Below are positions 1,991 through 41,638 of a stretch of DNA of 43,039 nt, piece by piece. Position 1 is the stretch's first letter; each line of letters starts with the position of its first letter. Source of the DNA: Escherichia phage SM_S24; sequence record PP920554.1; one strand, 5' to 3'. The notes under the pieces were generated by a model that had not been told where the DNA came from, ran no database searches, and saw nothing but the letters and a program-made list of their open reading frames with translations. The translations under genes were made by a program, and so were the position numbers.

Positions 1991-3511
1991 ATGACCGTTA
2001 ACGTTGATAACCAGCACCCACTTTATGCGCGCATCGCGCCAGAGTGGAAGATGATCCGCGATTGTGTAGCAGGGGAGCGCGCCGTGAAGGCGTGCGGCCC
2101 CTTGTACCTGCCTCATCCCGCCAGTGGCGACAATACGGACCCGAAAGCACGGGCGCGGTATAAGGCGTACAAGCAACGCGCTGTATTCCTGAACGCCACC
2201 GCCCGCACACTTAACGCGCTGTTAGGCGTTGCCTTTGCTAAACCGGTAAGTCTGGACCTTTCCGGGGCGATGGCGGACCTGATTGACGACGTAGACGGTA
2301 GCGGTATGCCGCTACCGCAACTCCTGCGCGGTGCTATGTCTGAAGTTCTGCAATCAGGCCGTGCGGGCTTTATGGTCGACTACGACCGCCAGGCGCATTT
2401 TGATGAACTTGGTAATGTAGTGCCGCAGACAGCCGCCGAGATGGCGTCACACCGCCCGCTTATCCGCCTGTACACGGCAGAACAGATCATCAACTGGCGG
2501 CAGACCCACGGCGTCGATACGCTGATTGTGCTGAAGGAAACGGACGAAATCAGCACCGAAGACCCGGACGATTTCGCAAACCACGAAGTAACAATCTGGA
2601 CCGAGCTTCGCATGATTAACGGTGCGGCACACGCCCGCCGCTGGTTTTACAACGCTGACACGTCCGAAGTGCAAATGGACTTGCCGCGTGGATTCACCCG
2701 CACCGACCTTGTTCCGCTGGTGGATGCTGCCGGTCGTGCGCTTACTCAACTTCCGTTTTGCTGGTGTGGCGCGGTGGACAACAACGCAACGCCTGACGCC
2801 GCTCCGCTGGCGGATATCGCATCCATCAACATTAAGCACTACAACGCCGAAGCGGACGTCGCCGAGATTGCGCACATTGTGGGCCAGCCGACCCTTGTTG
2901 CTACGGGCCTGACTCAATCATGGGCAGACAAAAACCTGAAGGGTGGCATTGCTCTCGGCGCGACTAAGGGCGTTATCCTGGGCCAGAACATGGACGCTAA
3001 ACTTATTCAGGCCGAGGAGCGCAACTTGTCTGTCGCTCTTTGTGAGCGCCGCGAATTGCAAATGGCTAAACTGGGCGCGGCCCTGGTCGAGAAGGGGACC
3101 GCACCTAAGACGGCAACCGAGGCGGCCTATGATGCACAGACTGATAACAGTATCCTGTCACTGATTGCCGGTAACGTCGAGAAGGCTTTCAACCGTGCGC
3201 TGCAAATCGTCAAGCTGTTCACGGGCGACACCGCAGATCAACGCGTAACGCTGAATAAGTTCTACACCGAAATCTCGGTTGACGCACAGCTTATGACCGC
3301 AATGATGGCGGGTGTGCAGACCGGTACGGTCCGTCTGGCGGACTTTATCAAGTGGATGATGGCCCAGGGCGTTATTGATGACTCGCAAACCGTCGAGCAG
3401 GTGGAAGACGAACTGCGAAATCAGAACCCATTGCCTCAAATGTCCCCGGATGCGGTAGAATCTACCGAAGAAGACCAGGGCAAGGTAGCGGACGATGGCG
3501 AGAACAATTAA
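1991..3511 (+). CDS. portal protein
   Basis: 506 aa ORF immediately after terL, RBS AAGGAAA 5 nt before the ATG; assignment by size and synteny. Confidence 0.7.
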   Translation: MTVNVDNQHPLYARIAPEWKMIRDCVAGERAVKACGPLYLPHPASGDNTDPKARARYKAYKQRAVFLNATARTLNALLGVAFAKPVSLDLSGAMADLIDDVDGSGMPLPQLLRGAMSEVLQSGRAGFMVDYDRQAHFDELGNVVPQTAAEMASHRPLIRLYTAEQIINWRQTHGVDTLIVLKETDEISTEDPDDFANHEVTIWTELRMINGAAHARRWFYNADTSEVQMDLPRGFTRTDLVPLVDAAGRALTQLPFCWCGAVDNNATPDAAPLADIASINIKHYNAEADVAEIAHIVGQPTLVATGLTQSWADKNLKGGIALGATKGVILGQNMDAKLIQAEERNLSVALCERRELQMAKLGAALVEKGTAPKTATEAAYDAQTDNSILSLIAGNVEKAFNRALQIVKLFTGDTADQRVTLNKFYTEISVDAQLMTAMMAGVQTGTVRLADFIKWMMAQGVIDDSQTVEQVEDELRNQNPLPQMSPDAVESTEEDQGKVADDGENN

Positions 3512-4598
3512 TCAATATATGGCGGATCGCATGATCCGCCGTCACATCTTCACCCAGCGCCTGAGCAATGACCAGGCGCGGAGGGTGCTGGCTATGTGGG
3601 AGAAGTTCCGGCCCACGTTACTGGGTAAGCTGACCGAGTTACTTGATGGCAAAAAGTCCATGAATAACAAAGCACTTACCACACTGTTAACGCAACTCGA
3701 CAAGACCGTCAAAACGGAACTGCGCACCGAGTTTAAGGCGTTGGCTGAAAGCCTTCAGGAGTTCGCCGACACCGAGGCTGATTATCTCGCCGACACATTA
3801 ACGGCAGCGATCCAGCCGGTGGTCGCCGTACCTGCGGTCGAGGTGGTTGGTGTAGTGACCGGTGCGCAGATCGCAGCGACGGCTATGAAAAACCCGTTCC
3901 AAGGTAATACTATGATGCAATGGCCTGACTCACTTTCTGAGTGGACCAGGACGCAGATCGGTAACCAGGTGCGAGCGGGATTCATCCAGGGCAAGCCAAC
4001 GATGGAAATTATCGCGGACGTGAGGCGCGCGCTAGGCGGTCGTAGTGCGCAAGCTATCTCGAGCGTTGTTAAGTCCGCAGTCAACCACTATGCGGCGACA
4101 GCCCGCGAATTAATGGTAAAAGCTAATGACGATATTCTCGAAGGTCGCCAATGGTTATCTACATTGGACACGCATACTTCTCCCATGTGCCAGCTACGCG
4201 ATCGCCTGTTTTATCCGGTTGATGTTACTCCCGACACCAAAGGAAAGCGCGGCGGGAAAGTGGTGGCTGGGTCACAATATGGCGCTGGTCCGGGCAAGCT
4301 GCATTATTGCTGCCGGTCGACGGAGACGTGGAAAGTTAAGGGCATGGAAGATTGGCCCAGTGGTAAGCGTCCGGCACTGAAGGCTGACGCGGGTAGATTG
4401 CTGAGTGAGCAGGTAGACGCGCAGACTGATTTCTTCTCATGGGTGCAGCGCCAGCCGCGCCATATCCTGGAAGAACTATACGGAGTGCAACGCGCCGACC
4501 AGATTATGCGCGGCGTGAAAGTGCCGAAGATGTTCACCGATTCAGGTGAACTGATGACTATCGCACAGCTTAAAAACCGGGGGTTATGGCGTGATTAA
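3495..4598 (+). CDS. head morphogenesis / minor capsid protein (SPP1 gp7 / Mu F-like position)
   Basis: 367 aa ORF overlapping the portal 3' end; synteny terL-portal-morphogenesis; alternative ATG at 3519. Confidence 0.5.
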   Translation: MARTINQYMADRMIRRHIFTQRLSNDQARRVLAMWEKFRPTLLGKLTELLDGKKSMNNKALTTLLTQLDKTVKTELRTEFKALAESLQEFADTEADYLADTLTAAIQPVVAVPAVEVVGVVTGAQIAATAMKNPFQGNTMMQWPDSLSEWTRTQIGNQVRAGFIQGKPTMEIIADVRRALGGRSAQAISSVVKSAVNHYAATARELMVKANDDILEGRQWLSTLDTHTSPMCQLRDRLFYPVDVTPDTKGKRGGKVVAGSQYGAGPGKLHYCCRSTETWKVKGMEDWPSGKRPALKADAGRLLSEQVDAQTDFFSWVQRQPRHILEELYGVQRADQIMRGVKVPKMFTDSGELMTIAQLKNRGLWRD

Positions 4599-4920
4599 AT
4601 ATGCATCGATTGGACTGGTTATCGGTCTGGCGGTAGGATTCTGGCTAGGTGACTCCTATCGCGCTGGCGTAGTGGCGGAGGCGGCGCAAGAAGCGCAAGC
4701 CAAAGCCCAACGGCAGCAAACTAAAGTTGTGGAGCGCTCCGTGCAGGCCGAACAGGCCCGCGACGTGGAATACCGGACTATCACGAAAGAGGTTGTTAAA
4801 TATGTTACGCGCCCTAACCGCCCTGATTGTAGTTTTGATGCTGAGCGCGTGCGGATCAAGCAACGCGCCGTTGATGCCGCTAACGGAGTCGGCACTGCGA
4901 CCGCCGTGCAAGTTCGATAG
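4591..4920 (+). CDS. i-spanin (Rz-like)
   Basis: 109 aa, GTG start with GGGGG RBS; N-terminal TM helix SIGLVIGLAVGFWLG then Ala/Gln-rich helical region; contains the embedded lipoprotein gene in the +1 frame. Confidence 0.6.
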   Translation: MIKYASIGLVIGLAVGFWLGDSYRAGVVAEAAQEAQAKAQRQQTKVVERSVQAEQARDVEYRTITKEVVKYVTRPNRPDCSFDAERVRIKQRAVDAANGVGTATAVQVR

Positions 4921-5032
4921 CCCGTCCGCAGACCCCGACGAGGATTTGATGATTGACGTGAAAAATATGGAATGCGGGGCGAAGCTAAGGGCGCAGGTGC
5001 TGGAGTTGCAGCAAATAATTAAGGGGCCGTAA
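4802..5032 (+). CDS. o-spanin (Rz1-like) outer-membrane lipoprotein
   Basis: 76 aa from ATG 4802 (RBS AAGAGG); signal peptide MLRALTALIVVLMLSAC with lipobox LSAC, Pro-rich mature part; starts inside Rz in another frame and runs past its stop (overlapped architecture). Confidence 0.65.
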   Translation: MLRALTALIVVLMLSACGSSNAPLMPLTESALRPPCKFDSPSADPDEDLMIDVKNMECGAKLRAQVLELQQIIKGP

Positions 5033-5573
5033 TGGCCCCTTTTTCGTTAGCGCGGAATACCGCACGGCAGCGTGGCTTATAGATCGGCAGCGATTTTCCG
5101 TCCTCGTCCACTTCACACACTGAAGCCAACATAACTGTCTCGAACCCCGGAACGATATCGCCGAGATCAGGCGAGAGCTTATTCATATATTTCTCTTCCC
5201 AGTATCCGCGATGTACGCGGTATTGGCGACCGTCACCGCTCAAGGACAAGATGCGAACATTGCCGCCTGCGTTGATTTCAAAGGTGGCGTCGTAAACGCT
5301 GCCGATACCCTTCGGGCGATCTGTGTCATAGCGATATGTTGCCTTGTTGGTGTATACGCTGACGCTGTACATCTGCGACTGGTCGTCGCGGATTGCCTTG
5401 ATATGCTCGCGGAGCGCTGCGAACGTGCGAATGCCTTCCGGCATACAGTCAAGCGTGATTGCGTACGCCAGATCGCGTGAGTCCATCATGATTTGTTTGG
5501 CTTCGGTTGCGATTTCGTGGTCGCGCAGGATGTTAGCCAGAATCTGATTTTTAATGACTTTAGTAAGTCTCAT
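5019..5573 (-). CDS. hypothetical protein (reverse-strand moron in head module)
   Basis: 184 aa from ATG at 5573 (RBS GAGGA, 7-nt spacer); the longer track ORF 5019..6020 is an N-terminal extension antisense to the scaffold gene; own promoter-like boxes upstream and terminator hairpin at its 3' end. Confidence 0.55.
   Translation of the reverse strand: MRLTKVIKNQILANILRDHEIATEAKQIMMDSRDLAYAITLDCMPEGIRTFAALREHIKAIRDDQSQMYSVSVYTNKATYRYDTDRPKGIGSVYDATFEINAGGNVRILSLSGDGRQYRVHRGYWEEKYMNKLSPDLGDIVPGFETVMLASVCEVDEDGKSLPIYKPRCRAVFRANEKGAITAP
5023..5044. terminator. bidirectional intrinsic terminator between Rz1 and the reverse-strand moron
   Basis: GGGGCC-GTAAT-GGCCCC followed by TTTTT; overlaps the last codons of both convergent genes. 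Confidence 0.6.
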
Positions 5574-5602
5574 TTTTGTGTCCTCGTTGTTGGTGTGCAA
5601 CC

Positions 5603-5631
5603 AATATATGCAACCAATACACGGATTGCAA
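5603..5631 (-). promoter_or_regulatory. sigma70-like promoter for the head-module moron, overlapping TGCAACCAAT boxes
   Basis: minus strand reads TTGCAA-17 nt-TATATT; spacer holds ATTGGTTGCA and a second copy lies just downstream. Confidence 0.45.
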
Positions 5632-5721
5632 GCTAATTTTGCGATTATTTTTATCGCTGATAATATTAGAAGCGTGAAGTCGAGCGGGTGGCCTGCTCTG
5701 CCACAATCCCAGGGGGATAGC

Positions 5722-6426
5722 ATGAAACTTACTAAAGCAGAATATGACGCGTTGCCGGAAGGTATGAAGGCGCTTTTTGTTGCCGATGGCGACGGGTATA
5801 AATCAACATTCATGACCGCCGAAGAAGTACAGGCGGAGATCAAGGGTCTGAAAGACAACAACGCTAAGCTGGTTAGCGAGAAGAAAGCAGAAGCTGAACG
5901 CCGCGCCGAAGCCGAGCGCCTTGCGAAAGAGAAAGAGGAAGCCGCCGCGCGCAAAAATGGCGACCTCGAAGCGATCGATAAGTCCTGGAAAGATAAGTTT
6001 GCAAAACACGAAGCAGACACATCGGGAAAAATCGAAGCCTACCGCAAGCAGATCCACGATCTCACCATCGGCAGCGCTGCCAAAGACCTGGCATCGAAGC
6101 TGTTCGGTAAGAATGCGGGCATCATGCAACGTCACGTTATGGACCGCCTGACGCTGGAAGACGGCGAAGACGGCAGCTTGAAAGTGCGTGTATTGCAGGA
6201 TGGCAAACCGTCCGCGCTGACTATGGAAGAGCTTGAAAAAGAGTTCCGTAATAACGCCGATTTTGCATCCGTCCTGGCTGGCACGCCAGCCGGTGGCGCA
6301 CCTAGCAAACCGACGCAGGTTGTCGAAGATGTGAAGTCGAAAATCACTATGGGCCACAGCTTCGGTATCACTGACCTTACGAAACAGGCAGGTGAAATCA
6401 TCGCTAAGATGGGCGACGACGAGTAA
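5722..6426 (+). CDS. scaffolding protein
   Basis: 234 aa from ATG 5722 (RBS AGGGGG); charged Ala/Glu/Lys-rich helical sequence (EKKAEAERRAEAERLAKEKEEAAARK); directly upstream of the major capsid gene. Confidence 0.6.
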   Translation: MKLTKAEYDALPEGMKALFVADGDGYKSTFMTAEEVQAEIKGLKDNNAKLVSEKKAEAERRAEAERLAKEKEEAAARKNGDLEAIDKSWKDKFAKHEADTSGKIEAYRKQIHDLTIGSAAKDLASKLFGKNAGIMQRHVMDRLTLEDGEDGSLKVRVLQDGKPSALTMEELEKEFRNNADFASVLAGTPAGGAPSKPTQVVEDVKSKITMGHSFGITDLTKQAGEIIAKMGDDE

Positions 6427-6523
6427 GCAGATTGCCCGCGAAAGCGGGCAATTTTGCGAGCGCGTAAATCTAAGGTAACATTAACGTCACTGGGCGAATG
6501 CTCACAACTCAAAGGATTTCGAT

Positions 6524-21413: not shown

Positions 21414-21437
21414 AAAGCCCCGAAAGGGGCTTATTTG
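21414..21437. terminator. hairpin at the convergent junction of tail gene and lipoprotein gene
   Basis: AGCCCC-GAAA-GGGGCT followed by TATTT on the plus strand; T-rich on the minus strand too. Confidence 0.5.
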
Positions 21438-21649
21438 CAGGTTGTGCTTTTGAAGTGGTCGACCGACACATACTGGAAGTTGAATGGGTATCCCGCCCGT
21501 AACATTTTATGACCGCTAACGTCTGCAACCCCAAACACAGGGACGGAATACTCCACGCCACTATTCATGTATGTCGCGTCGCAGACTTTAGTCGGCATGT
21601 TGGCACAACCCGACAAAAGAACCCCACAAATCATAATTAAAGTTTTCAT
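21431..21649 (-). CDS. small lipoprotein, candidate superinfection-exclusion protein (Llp/Cor-like)
   Basis: 72 aa from ATG 21649 (RBS AGGAG, 8-nt spacer); signal peptide MKTLIMICGVLLSGC with lipobox LSGC; reverse orientation between tail fiber genes. Confidence 0.5.
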   Translation of the reverse strand: MKTLIMICGVLLSGCANMPTKVCDATYMNSGVEYSVPVFGVADVSGHKMLRAGYPFNFQYVSVDHFKSTTCK

Positions 21650-21729
21650 GGTATCATCTCCTATATTTGGTCGAGTTTTAGTATCGCACCGCTCGACCAG
21701 GATTGCAACCAATTTAAGAGGATTCAGCT

Positions 21730-23944: not shown

Positions 23945-23974
23945 ACTATAGTGCAACCAACCTATTGGTTGCAA
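23945..23974 (-). promoter_or_regulatory. sigma70-like promoter with inverted-repeat operator
   Basis: minus strand TTGCAA-18 nt-TATAGT; spacer holds palindrome TGCAACCAA-CCTA-TTGGTTGCA; a 5' UTR hairpin follows. Confidence 0.45.
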
Positions 23975-25564: not shown

Positions 25565-25645
25565 CGTGTTGTCTCCAGGTATTAAAAAAGGCGTCCAAAC
25601 CGGACACCCTTAAGATAATGCAACCAATATGATTATGCAACCAAT

Positions 25646-35090: not shown

Positions 35091-35120
35091 ATGATAGATT
35101 GGTTGCAGGATGGGTGTCAA
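35091..35120 (-). promoter_or_regulatory. leftward early promoter (sigma70-like)
   Basis: minus strand TTGACA-18 nt-TATCAT; TGCAACCAAT box inside the spacer. Confidence 0.55.
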
Positions 35121-35296: not shown

Positions 35297-35626
35297 ATGA
35301 ATATCAAAGAAGCAATTGAAGTGTTATCTAATGCAATCCGCGGCGAAGCGGGTAAATCCTGGTATTACACAAATGCGGTGGATACTCTGTTATTTGAAGT
35401 GTCCAGATTATCGCGTGCTGAGAAGGAGCTTACCGCGAAGCTGGAATTACTCAACGGTACGGCAGCAAGCAAGCTGCAAAAGCACAATGAAGAAATGGAA
35501 GAATACAAAAAACAGGTTATCCGTCTACGTGAGGAAGGTAAATCCTGGGCGATGATTGCCGAGTTGACCGGAATTAATCAGAGCACAGTGCGCTCCTGGG
35601 TACGCAATAATAAAACTTCTAAGTAA
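35297..35626 (+). CDS. HTH DNA-binding protein (putative transcriptional regulator)
   Basis: 109 aa, RBS AGGAG; C-terminal helix-turn-helix-like segment WAMIAELTGINQSTVRSWV; first rightward gene at the divergent promoter region. Confidence 0.55.
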   Translation: MNIKEAIEVLSNAIRGEAGKSWYYTNAVDTLLFEVSRLSRAEKELTAKLELLNGTAASKLQKHNEEMEEYKKQVIRLREEGKSWAMIAELTGINQSTVRSWVRNNKTSK

Positions 35627-38383: not shown

Positions 38384-38542
38384 CATAAAATCCGGGATTG
38401 CATAACGCACGGCAACAAGATGCGAATTGCGGTCGTCGATGAACTAGGCAACCAATGCGCGTTGCAGAATGGTGGGCGAAAAATGCAGTTTGCAGTTGCA
38501 GCAGATAGCGATCAACTTTTTCATGCGCGTGATTAATATTGG

Positions 38543-38571
38543 TTGCATTCACCCTGGCACCCTGCTATTTT
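38543..38571 (+). promoter_or_regulatory. promoter-like element upstream of the 38600 operon
   Basis: TTGCAT-17 nt-TATTTT; -35 inside ATTGGTTGCAT, second TTGGTTGCA just downstream; region nearly identical to the moron 5' region. Confidence 0.45.
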
Positions 38572-38599
38572 GGTTGCACACCAACAAGAGGACTGAACG

Positions 38600-38935: not shown

Positions 38936-39205
38936 ATGACCCGTAGACGCGCAAAACAGCTTTCGTGGCATATTCCCCTGCATTGCATACGAATATGGGC
39001 TAAGAATGCGAATGCGGGGGATTCTGTATTCTGGTGTTATCGCGACGACGTTAAGCCGTTGACGCAGACTCGCTACTTGCACCAGTTCGCAGCACAACAC
39101 GATTTCAGGGTGCGGACTTCCTTGCAACCAACGGGAATACGTATTACATTACGCCGGAAGCCCGCCGTTGAGCGGGTAGGCAAACACTGGAGACTGAGCA
39201 AATGA
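38936..39205 (+). CDS. hypothetical basic protein
   Basis: 89 aa, RBS AAGAGG; Arg/Lys-rich. Confidence 0.45.
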   Translation: MTRRRAKQLSWHIPLHCIRIWAKNANAGDSVFWCYRDDVKPLTQTRYLHQFAAQHDFRVRTSLQPTGIRITLRRKPAVERVGKHWRLSK

Positions 39206-41608: not shown

Positions 41609-41638
41609 TTGACTTGCAACCAATTAATAGCTCATACT
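41609..41638 (+). promoter_or_regulatory. promoter-like element upstream of the leader-like peptide and HTH-phosphoesterase gene
   Basis: TTGACT then TGCAACCAAT in the spacer, -10-like CATACT, second TGCGACCAAT downstream. Confidence 0.4.

Follow-up and report, generated by a model that had tools for sequence, protein, structure and literature searches.

The closest described counterparts of the locus analysed here are the nmad5 genes of the Dhillonviruses SM_A8 and SM_S22, which were studied by Yamashita et al. 2025 (PMC11846954). In that work, mutants of SM_A8 and of SM_S22-delta-anti-Tmn that escaped the defence on Tmn-expressing E. coli carried the changes K216E and K296E, respectively; reversion of the K-to-E change brought Tmn sensitivity back and its introduction conferred resistance (PMC11846954). 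The same authors found that nmad5 was uncloneable, with apparent toxicity, and that its deletion left a viable phage that did not escape Tmn. Moreover, wild-type nmad5 gave no protection from Tmn, only K216E giving escape, and the anti-Tmn gene of SM_S22 was a different one, ORF35 (PMC11846954). These findings speak against nmad5 having a simple anti-Tmn role.

DNA-modification gene neighbourhoods were the basis on which the Nmad5 family itself was defined (Iyer et al. 2013, cited through PMC11846954), and in the M6-like phages Nmad5 has been listed with the thymidine-hypermodification cassette (PMC9476957). Here we describe the nmad5 locus of Escherichia phage SM_S24 (PP920554.1), for which the whole stretch of 43,039 nucleotides, hereafter the window, was analysed. 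Previous publications cover the gene, where it lies and its connection with Tmn; what is new is a frame-shifted deletion allele without the module in which the Tmn-escape change lies.

The locus and its gene

A DNA search with positions 4500-6500 matched 158 phage records at 80-97% identity, nearly all of them from Dhillonvirus phages of Escherichia or Shigella (L-h 1M, BMA1, EC115, Over9000 and EP23 among others). The window opens with the small terminase gene and reaches its end after a metallophosphatase gene. Its gene order is collinear with the annotated BMA1 genome, and we therefore take it to be the nearly complete genome of a Dhillonvirus, that is, of an HK578/EP23-like virulent coliphage.

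An ORF of 184 codons (ATG at 5573-5571, TAA at 5021-5019) lies on the reverse strand, with the spanin genes on one side and the scaffold gene on the other. It is preceded by the Shine-Dalgarno sequence GAGGA (5585-5581), which lies 7 nt 5' of the ATG and is conserved in the relatives. The product has a GRAVY of -0.40 and a maximum 19-residue hydropathy of 1.24, with no transmembrane helix. In these respects a first-pass annotation, made from the sequence without database searches, was accurate: it had described a unit with its own signals inside the structural operon, encoding a protein that looked soluble behind a good ribosome-binding site. It had recognised no motif in the protein, and here it has to be corrected, as the 184-aa product is a clear member of the Pfam family Nmad5 (PF18757; 91.5 bits, E=9.6e-26, with a gathering cut-off of 27 bits) and also matches phrog_1965 of PHROGs (E=7.3e-25).

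The Nmad5 profile match covers positions 1-121 of 206 only, whereas the full-length BMA1 protein spans positions 1-206 (E=1.8e-60). The N-terminal signature (RLT..I...I..N) and the central sheet of the window protein fit PF18757/PHROG 1965 over positions 1-121, but the part corresponding to positions 122-206 is missing, and with it the C-terminal helical module that carries T.KKL..AWPE and LN...GLP. At the same locus, the Nmad5 of both BMA1 and EP23 has 254 aa. Residues 1-170 of the window protein are 93% identical to the BMA1 protein, 33 of the 43 clusters of close homologues are exactly 254 aa long, and a tblastn search of all phages found full-length nmad5 in 147 GenBank records, of the 158 that match the locus by DNA. 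By position, orientation and collinear sequence, the window gene is the orthologue of Dhillonvirus nmad5.

The nmad5 genes of SM_A8 (PP920553, 254 aa) and SM_S22 (PP627283, annotated as 334 aa) occupy this same reverse-strand locus between spanin and scaffold, and their products are 79-80% identical to the window protein over residues 1-170. In SM_S22, as in the window, nmad5 abuts its promoter with no cargo gene in between. The escape residues K216 (SM_A8) and K296 (SM_S22) share one alignment column, the 80-residue offset in numbering corresponding to an N-terminal extension annotated in SM_S22. This lysine is the second K of T-x-KKL-x2-AWPE. Unlike both published proteins, however, the window protein lacks residues 171-249, K216 included, and ends instead in a 14-residue out-of-frame tail.

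The 238-bp deletion

BLAST comparison with BMA1 and EP23 and inspection of the junction sequences placed a deletion of 238 bp, relative to full-length nmad5, at positions 5063..5065. At the junction, an imperfect repeat (AATaCCgCA / AAT-CCaCA) contains a CA microhomology. Because 238 cannot be divided by three, the protein is native up to residue 170 and out of frame over residues 171-184. The native part (codons 1-170, 5064..5573, reverse strand) corresponds in Pfam and alignments to the N-terminal alpha/beta domain. The tail (codons 171-184, AVFRANEKGAITAP, 5022..5063, reverse strand) runs through the terminator stem to the TAA at 5019..5021; in the native frame, translation would end at the TAA at 5050-5052. 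What has been removed amounts to residues 171-249, the 3' third of the gene.

A 151-base query across the junction was split in two pieces spanning 389 bases in all 21 records that covered it, and no contiguous junction was found among 50,697 phage records. Likewise, no exact copy of the 184-aa protein turned up among 15 billion collected protein sequences. As the alignments indicate, the 184-aa ORF is a deletion product and not a native protein. The first-pass annotation had taken it for a whole protein and thereby missed a frame-shifted deletion allele without its conserved C-terminal third; the ORF should be annotated as a truncated, pseudogene-like allele of Nmad5 rather than as a novel hypothetical protein. 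In the retained N-terminal part D6V is the only private substitution, and this lies within the range of the intact alleles. We looked for decay in this part; with a single private substitution none is visible, and the comparison is uninformative.

Conserved C-terminal module and predicted structure

Searches beyond the genus pointed to the C-terminal region of Nmad5 as its most widely shared part. In tblastn against all phages, the distant homologues, which come from Pseudomonas Yuavirus/M6-like phages, Stx-converting and other lambdoid phages, Vibrio phages and Bordetella phages, aligned only at residues about 156-253. An exhaustive HMMER search of 1.84 billion representatives gave residues about 150-254 as the best-scoring stretch of most distant hits. 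The C-terminal module is the sole part of Nmad5 that the Yuavirus, lambdoid/Stx, Vibrio and Bordetella phages have in common.

In an alignment of 82 sequences, L217, W221 and N247 were invariant and P222, E223, P229 and L246 nearly so, and 17 of the 26 columns conserved at 60% or more lay at residue 193 or later. The remaining such columns were those of the N-terminal signature (R2, L3, T4, I7, I11 and N14) plus a few glycines and one proline; beyond the genus, the N-terminal domain shows little conservation except at residues 2-14. Within the genus the pattern is similar, with a mean entropy of 0.14 for residues 170-254 versus 0.42 for residues 1-169, and with 58 of 85 C-terminal positions invariant versus 77 of 169 in the rest. 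The native sequence of the window protein stops at R170, so that it has no T-x-K-K-L-x2-A-W-P-E ... L-N-x3-G-L-P motif, and nearly all the positions conserved across the family (T213, K215/K216, L217, W221, P222, E223, P229, L246 and N247) are in the lost module. Judged by these alignments, the deleted segment is the conserved core of the Nmad5 family.

AlphaFold2, run on the alignment, modelled the full-length protein with a pLDDT of 89.3 and a pTM of 0.82. The model has three N-terminal helices, a four-stranded sheet (79-110) and a poorly defined loop (about 119-127), followed in the C-terminal part by a long helix (178-209) and short helices (214-227 and 243-250). For the truncated window protein, residues 1-170 were also modelled confidently (pLDDT 88.1, pTM 0.84), with the tail disordered (pLDDT 44-71). 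In these models, residues 1-170 form a plausible autonomous N-terminal domain, which does not imply that the fragment is stable or active. No structural relative of Nmad5 was found among the solved structures of the PDB.

Predicted promoter and terminator

A consensus scan identified, on the reverse strand, a -35-like hexamer TTGCAA (5626..5631), which is also present in the relatives L012-L014, and, after a 17-nt spacer, a -10-like hexamer TATATT (5603..5608). Two exact copies of the box TTGGTTGCA accompany them on the same strand, one within the promoter spacer (5609..5617) and the other overlapping the end of the -10 hexamer and the start of the 5' UTR (5596..5604). The sigma70-like promoter with its box and the bidirectional terminator reported in the first-pass annotation were thus recovered where it had placed them. 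The scan yielded 1 match to the promoter consensus versus 1.5 expected, which is not above chance. In contrast, the window contains 12 exact copies of TTGGTTGCA versus 0.39 expected, with a maximum of 2 in any of 100 shuffles, and a box-bearing promoter heads the nmad5 cassette in 10 of the 10 IMG/VR relatives examined, 8 of which have the paired box. It is because of the boxes and of this conservation, and not of the hexamer match by itself, that we consider the promoter prediction credible. It would presumably be used by the host RNA polymerase.

At the other end of the cassette, a terminator scan and folding identified a bidirectional intrinsic terminator hairpin (5021..5041, both strands; folding energy -15.9 kcal/mol for the minus strand and -15.5 kcal/mol for the plus strand, with z about -3.2), and the homologous site of HK578 is annotated with terminators on both strands. 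By prediction, the portal-MuF-spanin transcript coming from the left and the nmad5 transcript coming from the right would both stop at this hairpin. At the level of sequence, the cassette carries candidate signals of the kind expected of a moron, a putative promoter and terminator of its own, and these signals are conserved in the relatives.

The near identity of the nmad5 5' region with that of the 38600 operon, already noticed in the first-pass annotation, was borne out: 38 of 45 columns match, including an 18/18 identical core (TTGGTTGCACACCAACAA), and positions 38564-38592 hardly differ from the segment that runs from the -10 hexamer to the ribosome-binding site. The early-type regulation suggested in the first-pass annotation presupposes that the unit of ORF 38600 is early, which is an assumption; that unit continues into lysis and packaging genes. 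The TTGGTTGCA boxes occur at most intergenic promoter-like sites of the genome, on both strands, with no restriction to one operon class, and we dropped the box as a marker of an 'early' class on these grounds. A literature search found no transcription data for Dhillonviruses.

Loss of nmad5 in related phages

The window is not the only genome in which nmad5 is defective. HK578, the type species, has no nmad5, only a cargo gene being found between promoter and terminators, and vB_EcoD_Teewinot (Teewinot) has retained only residues 1-38. Independent deletions of the 3' half, of about 262 and 113 bp, were found in the metagenomic contigs SRR25542883_36620 and ERR10744563_240, and another allele (P0043) is frame-shifted near codon 80. 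HK578, Teewinot and the two contigs resemble the window in having independently lost all or the 3' part of nmad5 with promoter and bidirectional terminator kept, but they differ from it in the extent of the loss (deletions of about 113, 262 and 642 bp versus 238 bp) and, in HK578, in the cargo gene that is kept.

The first-pass annotation had called the gene a moron and had proposed that its presence or absence in related phages be checked. Its accessory character is upheld by HK578, by the Teewinot deletion and by the viable deletion mutant (PMC11846954), and the locus is polymorphic for presence and absence of the gene; however, with full-length nmad5 in 147 records, its distribution is not sporadic. 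As for the suggestion that a gene at such a site would act in host interaction or against defences, a relevance to defence is backed by the K216E change in the orthologue, with which the phage escapes Tmn, and the published data speak against a simple anti-Tmn role (PMC11846954).

Interpretation of the deletion allele

Taken as a whole, we read the locus with good confidence as a Dhillonvirus nmad5 cassette that carries a deletion allele and has probably lost its function. A short unit transcribed leftward, lying between spanin and scaffold genes, would be expressed from the conserved box promoter. An ancestral 254-aa nmad5 would have lost 238 bp by deletion at the short imperfect repeat, and the resulting frame shift after residue 170 would add 14 unrelated residues encoded through the terminator stem. 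The deletion would thereby have stripped the protein of its helical C-terminal module, including the residue that decides Tmn sensitivity. Given the intact promoter, ribosome-binding site and ORF, the truncated protein is probably made, but from the conservation of what is missing it would be a loss-of-function or strongly hypomorphic remnant. Loss of function is the most likely outcome because the conserved C-terminus is gone, the tail is nonsense and phages live without the gene; the phage would tolerate the truncation since nmad5 is dispensable. The evidence supports a view of the intact Nmad5 as a phage-specific, host-toxic accessory protein, with the C-terminal module as its conserved interaction or active part.

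It might be argued instead that the truncated ORF is a functional variant consisting of the N-terminal domain only, and that loss of the C-terminal module was adaptive in removing a part that is toxic or sensed by a defence. The intact expression signals, the single private substitution and the confident AlphaFold2 model of an autonomous fold for residues 1-170 would all be compatible with this, as would the location of the Tmn-escape mutation in the C-terminal module. In addition, three deletions that arose independently, in the window, P0033 and P0037, took away the C-terminal region but spared 155 or more residues at the N-terminus. On the other hand, Teewinot and HK578 have lost nearly the whole gene and P0043 is frame-shifted at about residue 80, so that retention of the N-terminal domain is not general. 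Complete deletion of nmad5 gave no escape from Tmn (PMC11846954), little of the N-terminal domain other than residues 2-14 is conserved beyond the genus, and AlphaFold2 confidence that is driven by the alignment is uninformative on the stability of a fragment. We consider such a variant unlikely.

A second possibility is that Nmad5 is a DNA base-modification enzyme or an accessory factor of one, in which case the phage of the window would be modification-deficient. The family was defined by DNA-modification neighbourhoods (Iyer et al. 2013, as cited in PMC11846954), and in the M6-like phages and Yuavirus Nmad5 stands beside thymidine-hypermodification genes (PMC9476957): its neighbours there are an aGPT-Pplase, a kinase, a radical-SAM enzyme, a PLP enzyme and a pyrimidine hydroxymethylase, and in the Yuavirus Aergia it lies between the hypermodification genes and a thymidylate-synthase-like gene. 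However, other contexts do not fit. The homologue of an Stx1 phage directly follows N in the pL operon, that of the lambdoid phage mEp235 follows N and a Nun-like gene in the same operon, and that of Vibrio phage Athena1 precedes the replication gene O, with no modification genes near nmad5 in the lambdoid, Stx and Vibrio phages examined. In Dhillonvirus, nmad5 stands alone among the head genes. A tblastn search, at BLAST-level sensitivity, detected no homologues of the Aergia hypermodification cluster in the window. Pfam analysis of ten window ORFs, from the replication region and other non-structural parts, found no hypermodification families, the only matches being Dam, VRR-NUC, a HAD-like phosphatase and a metallophosphatase; the BMA1 annotation lists no hypermodification genes either. 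Among the residues conserved across the family, L, W, P, G and N predominate and only one residue is acidic; they do not look like an obvious catalytic set, nor was a fold relative found among solved enzymes. What these contexts share is an accessory gene in early or replication-proximal settings; a modification pathway is not the common element. The label 'DNA modification enzyme' comes from gene neighbourhood only and is unproven, as it finds no support in the gene context of Dhillonvirus or lambdoid phages and the conserved residues do not look catalytic; we consider a modification role of Nmad5, and with it a modification-deficient window phage, unlikely.

Finally, the uniqueness of the junction among 50,697 records, the absence of the protein from 15 billion sequences and the position of the junction at a short imperfect repeat could be taken to mean that the phage has an ordinary 254-aa gene and that the deletion stems from faulty sequencing or assembly or arose in only a few phages of the stock. 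A modern assembler, however, should not be misled by an imperfect repeat of just 9 nt, and independent deletions of similar size and place, one in a deposited genome and others in two metagenomic assemblies unrelated to it, show that nmad5 deletions do occur in nature, so that we regard this as very improbable.

Returning to the preferred reading, a Dhillonvirus cassette with a probably inactive nmad5, one may speculate that the C-terminal module of Nmad5 is a liability exploited by defences, Tmn being the first known case, and that Dhillonviruses shed it repeatedly by deletion. We hold this only tentatively and think it improbable as it stands; if true, the window, the two metagenomic alleles, Teewinot and HK578 would be footprints of selection, with the N-terminal domain sometimes kept as useful. 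For phage-therapy work, natural nmad5-defective phages are ready material with which to study the function of Nmad5 and its reading by Tmn.

Cargo genes and a second lone reverse-strand gene

What truly varies at the locus is a cargo slot upstream of nmad5, between the box promoter and the nmad5 ATG. This slot is empty in the window, in SM_S22 and in L012-14, and in the relatives at least four alternative cargo genes occupy it: a 53-aa ORF (4 records), an ORF of 104-122 aa belonging to phrog_24635 (about 61 records at 90% identity or more), a 135-aa ORF (7 E. coli phage records) and a 170-aa beta-clamp-like ORF (16 records at 80% identity or more, plus 233 distant records from other phages). 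Three of the cargo types have in common a hairpin at their 3' boundary, GGGGCGAAAGCCCC. We considered whether a cargo gene at the nmad5 locus was the published anti-Tmn gene, but it is not, as ORF35 of SM_S22 lies elsewhere (nmad5 is CDS6 in that phage).

A comparable arrangement is found in the tail module of the window, where a Cor-type gene (21431-21649, minus strand) is, like nmad5, a lone reverse-strand accessory gene in a structural operon with a TTGGTTGCA-box promoter. Unlike the nmad5 of the window, this gene is intact; its sequence is unrelated, and its product is a lipoprotein annotated in BMA1 as the Cor superinfection-exclusion protein.

Distribution of the TTGGTTGCA box

The 9-nt sequence TTGGTTGCA was found 12 times in the window, against 0.39 copies expected, at 5596-5617 (the nmad5 promoter), 21704-21712, 23952-23973, 25619-25644, 35099-35107, 38539-38578, 39123-39131 and 41615-41623. 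The copies lie on both strands and all but one are in intergenic, promoter-like DNA, the exception being that at 23965-23973, which overlaps an ORF at its final codons. Direct pairs are spaced by 13, 17 and 31 nt, and one arrangement, TGCAACCAA-TAGG-TTGGTTGCA, is a perfect palindrome. The box may act as an extended -35 element or as an operator for a phage regulator. The first gene past the box at 35099 is a 109-aa ORF (35297-35626, plus strand) with matches to HTH_23 and Sigma70 region 4 (E about 8e-7), which the annotation of relatives calls a 'transposase'; purely as speculation, this HTH protein can be put forward as a candidate binder of the boxes.

The box at 21704-21712 belongs to a second reverse-strand unit among the structural genes of the window. 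This unit (21431-21649, minus strand) encodes a 72-aa lipoprotein (MKTLIMICGVLLSGC...) corresponding to the gene annotated in the relative BMA1 as a Cor superinfection-exclusion protein, and it resembles the nmad5 cassette in having a box promoter and the same architecture.

Variation at the nmad5 locus

The slot separating nmad5 from its box promoter, empty in the window (5574-5595), is a hot spot that holds alternative cargo genes in relatives (2852-3220 in locus L001, 2893-3405 in L002 from EP23, 2550-2957 in L008 and 2825-2986 in L011). Apart from the empty state, ORFs of 53 aa, 104-122 aa (phrog_24635), 135 aa and 170 aa (beta-clamp-like) were observed in it, and three of these cargo types end in an identical hairpin, GGGGCGAAAGCCCC. 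The labels of the 170-aa protein, EP23 gp08 (L002 2893-3405), are in conflict: whereas GenBank names it 'DNA polymerase III beta subunit', RefSeq and PHROGs give 'RusA-like Holliday junction resolvase'. Pfam matched it only to the central domain of the beta clamp, below threshold (E=7e-4), and 233 distant homologues were found in Salmonella, Klebsiella and other phages.

The nmad5 gene itself is entirely missing from HK578 (L023, 5002-5500), and independent deletions within it were found in Teewinot (L004) and in two metagenomic contigs (L021 and L022). On the right-hand side, the deletions in the window, in L021 and in Teewinot end close together, in a stretch of about 17 bp (positions 1320-1336 of the BMA1 reference), with the native stop codon lying 15-31 bp past these end points.

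When ORFs are called mechanically, a GTG start extends nmad5 to 333 aa (5019-6020, minus strand) and makes it overlap the opposite-strand scaffold gene. The 334-aa nmad5 deposited for the Dhillonvirus SM_S22 is an over-extension of the same kind, which is why the literature numbers the affected lysine both as K296 and as K216.

On the other side of nmad5, the spanin genes (4591-5032, plus strand; a 109-aa i-spanin and an overlapping o-spanin ending at 5032) lie between a MuF-like head morphogenesis gene and the scaffold gene, distant from the genes at about 40.0-41.4 kb that, judging from collinearity with BMA1, appear to encode the holin and endolysin. The o-spanin stop codon falls within the stem of the bidirectional terminator.
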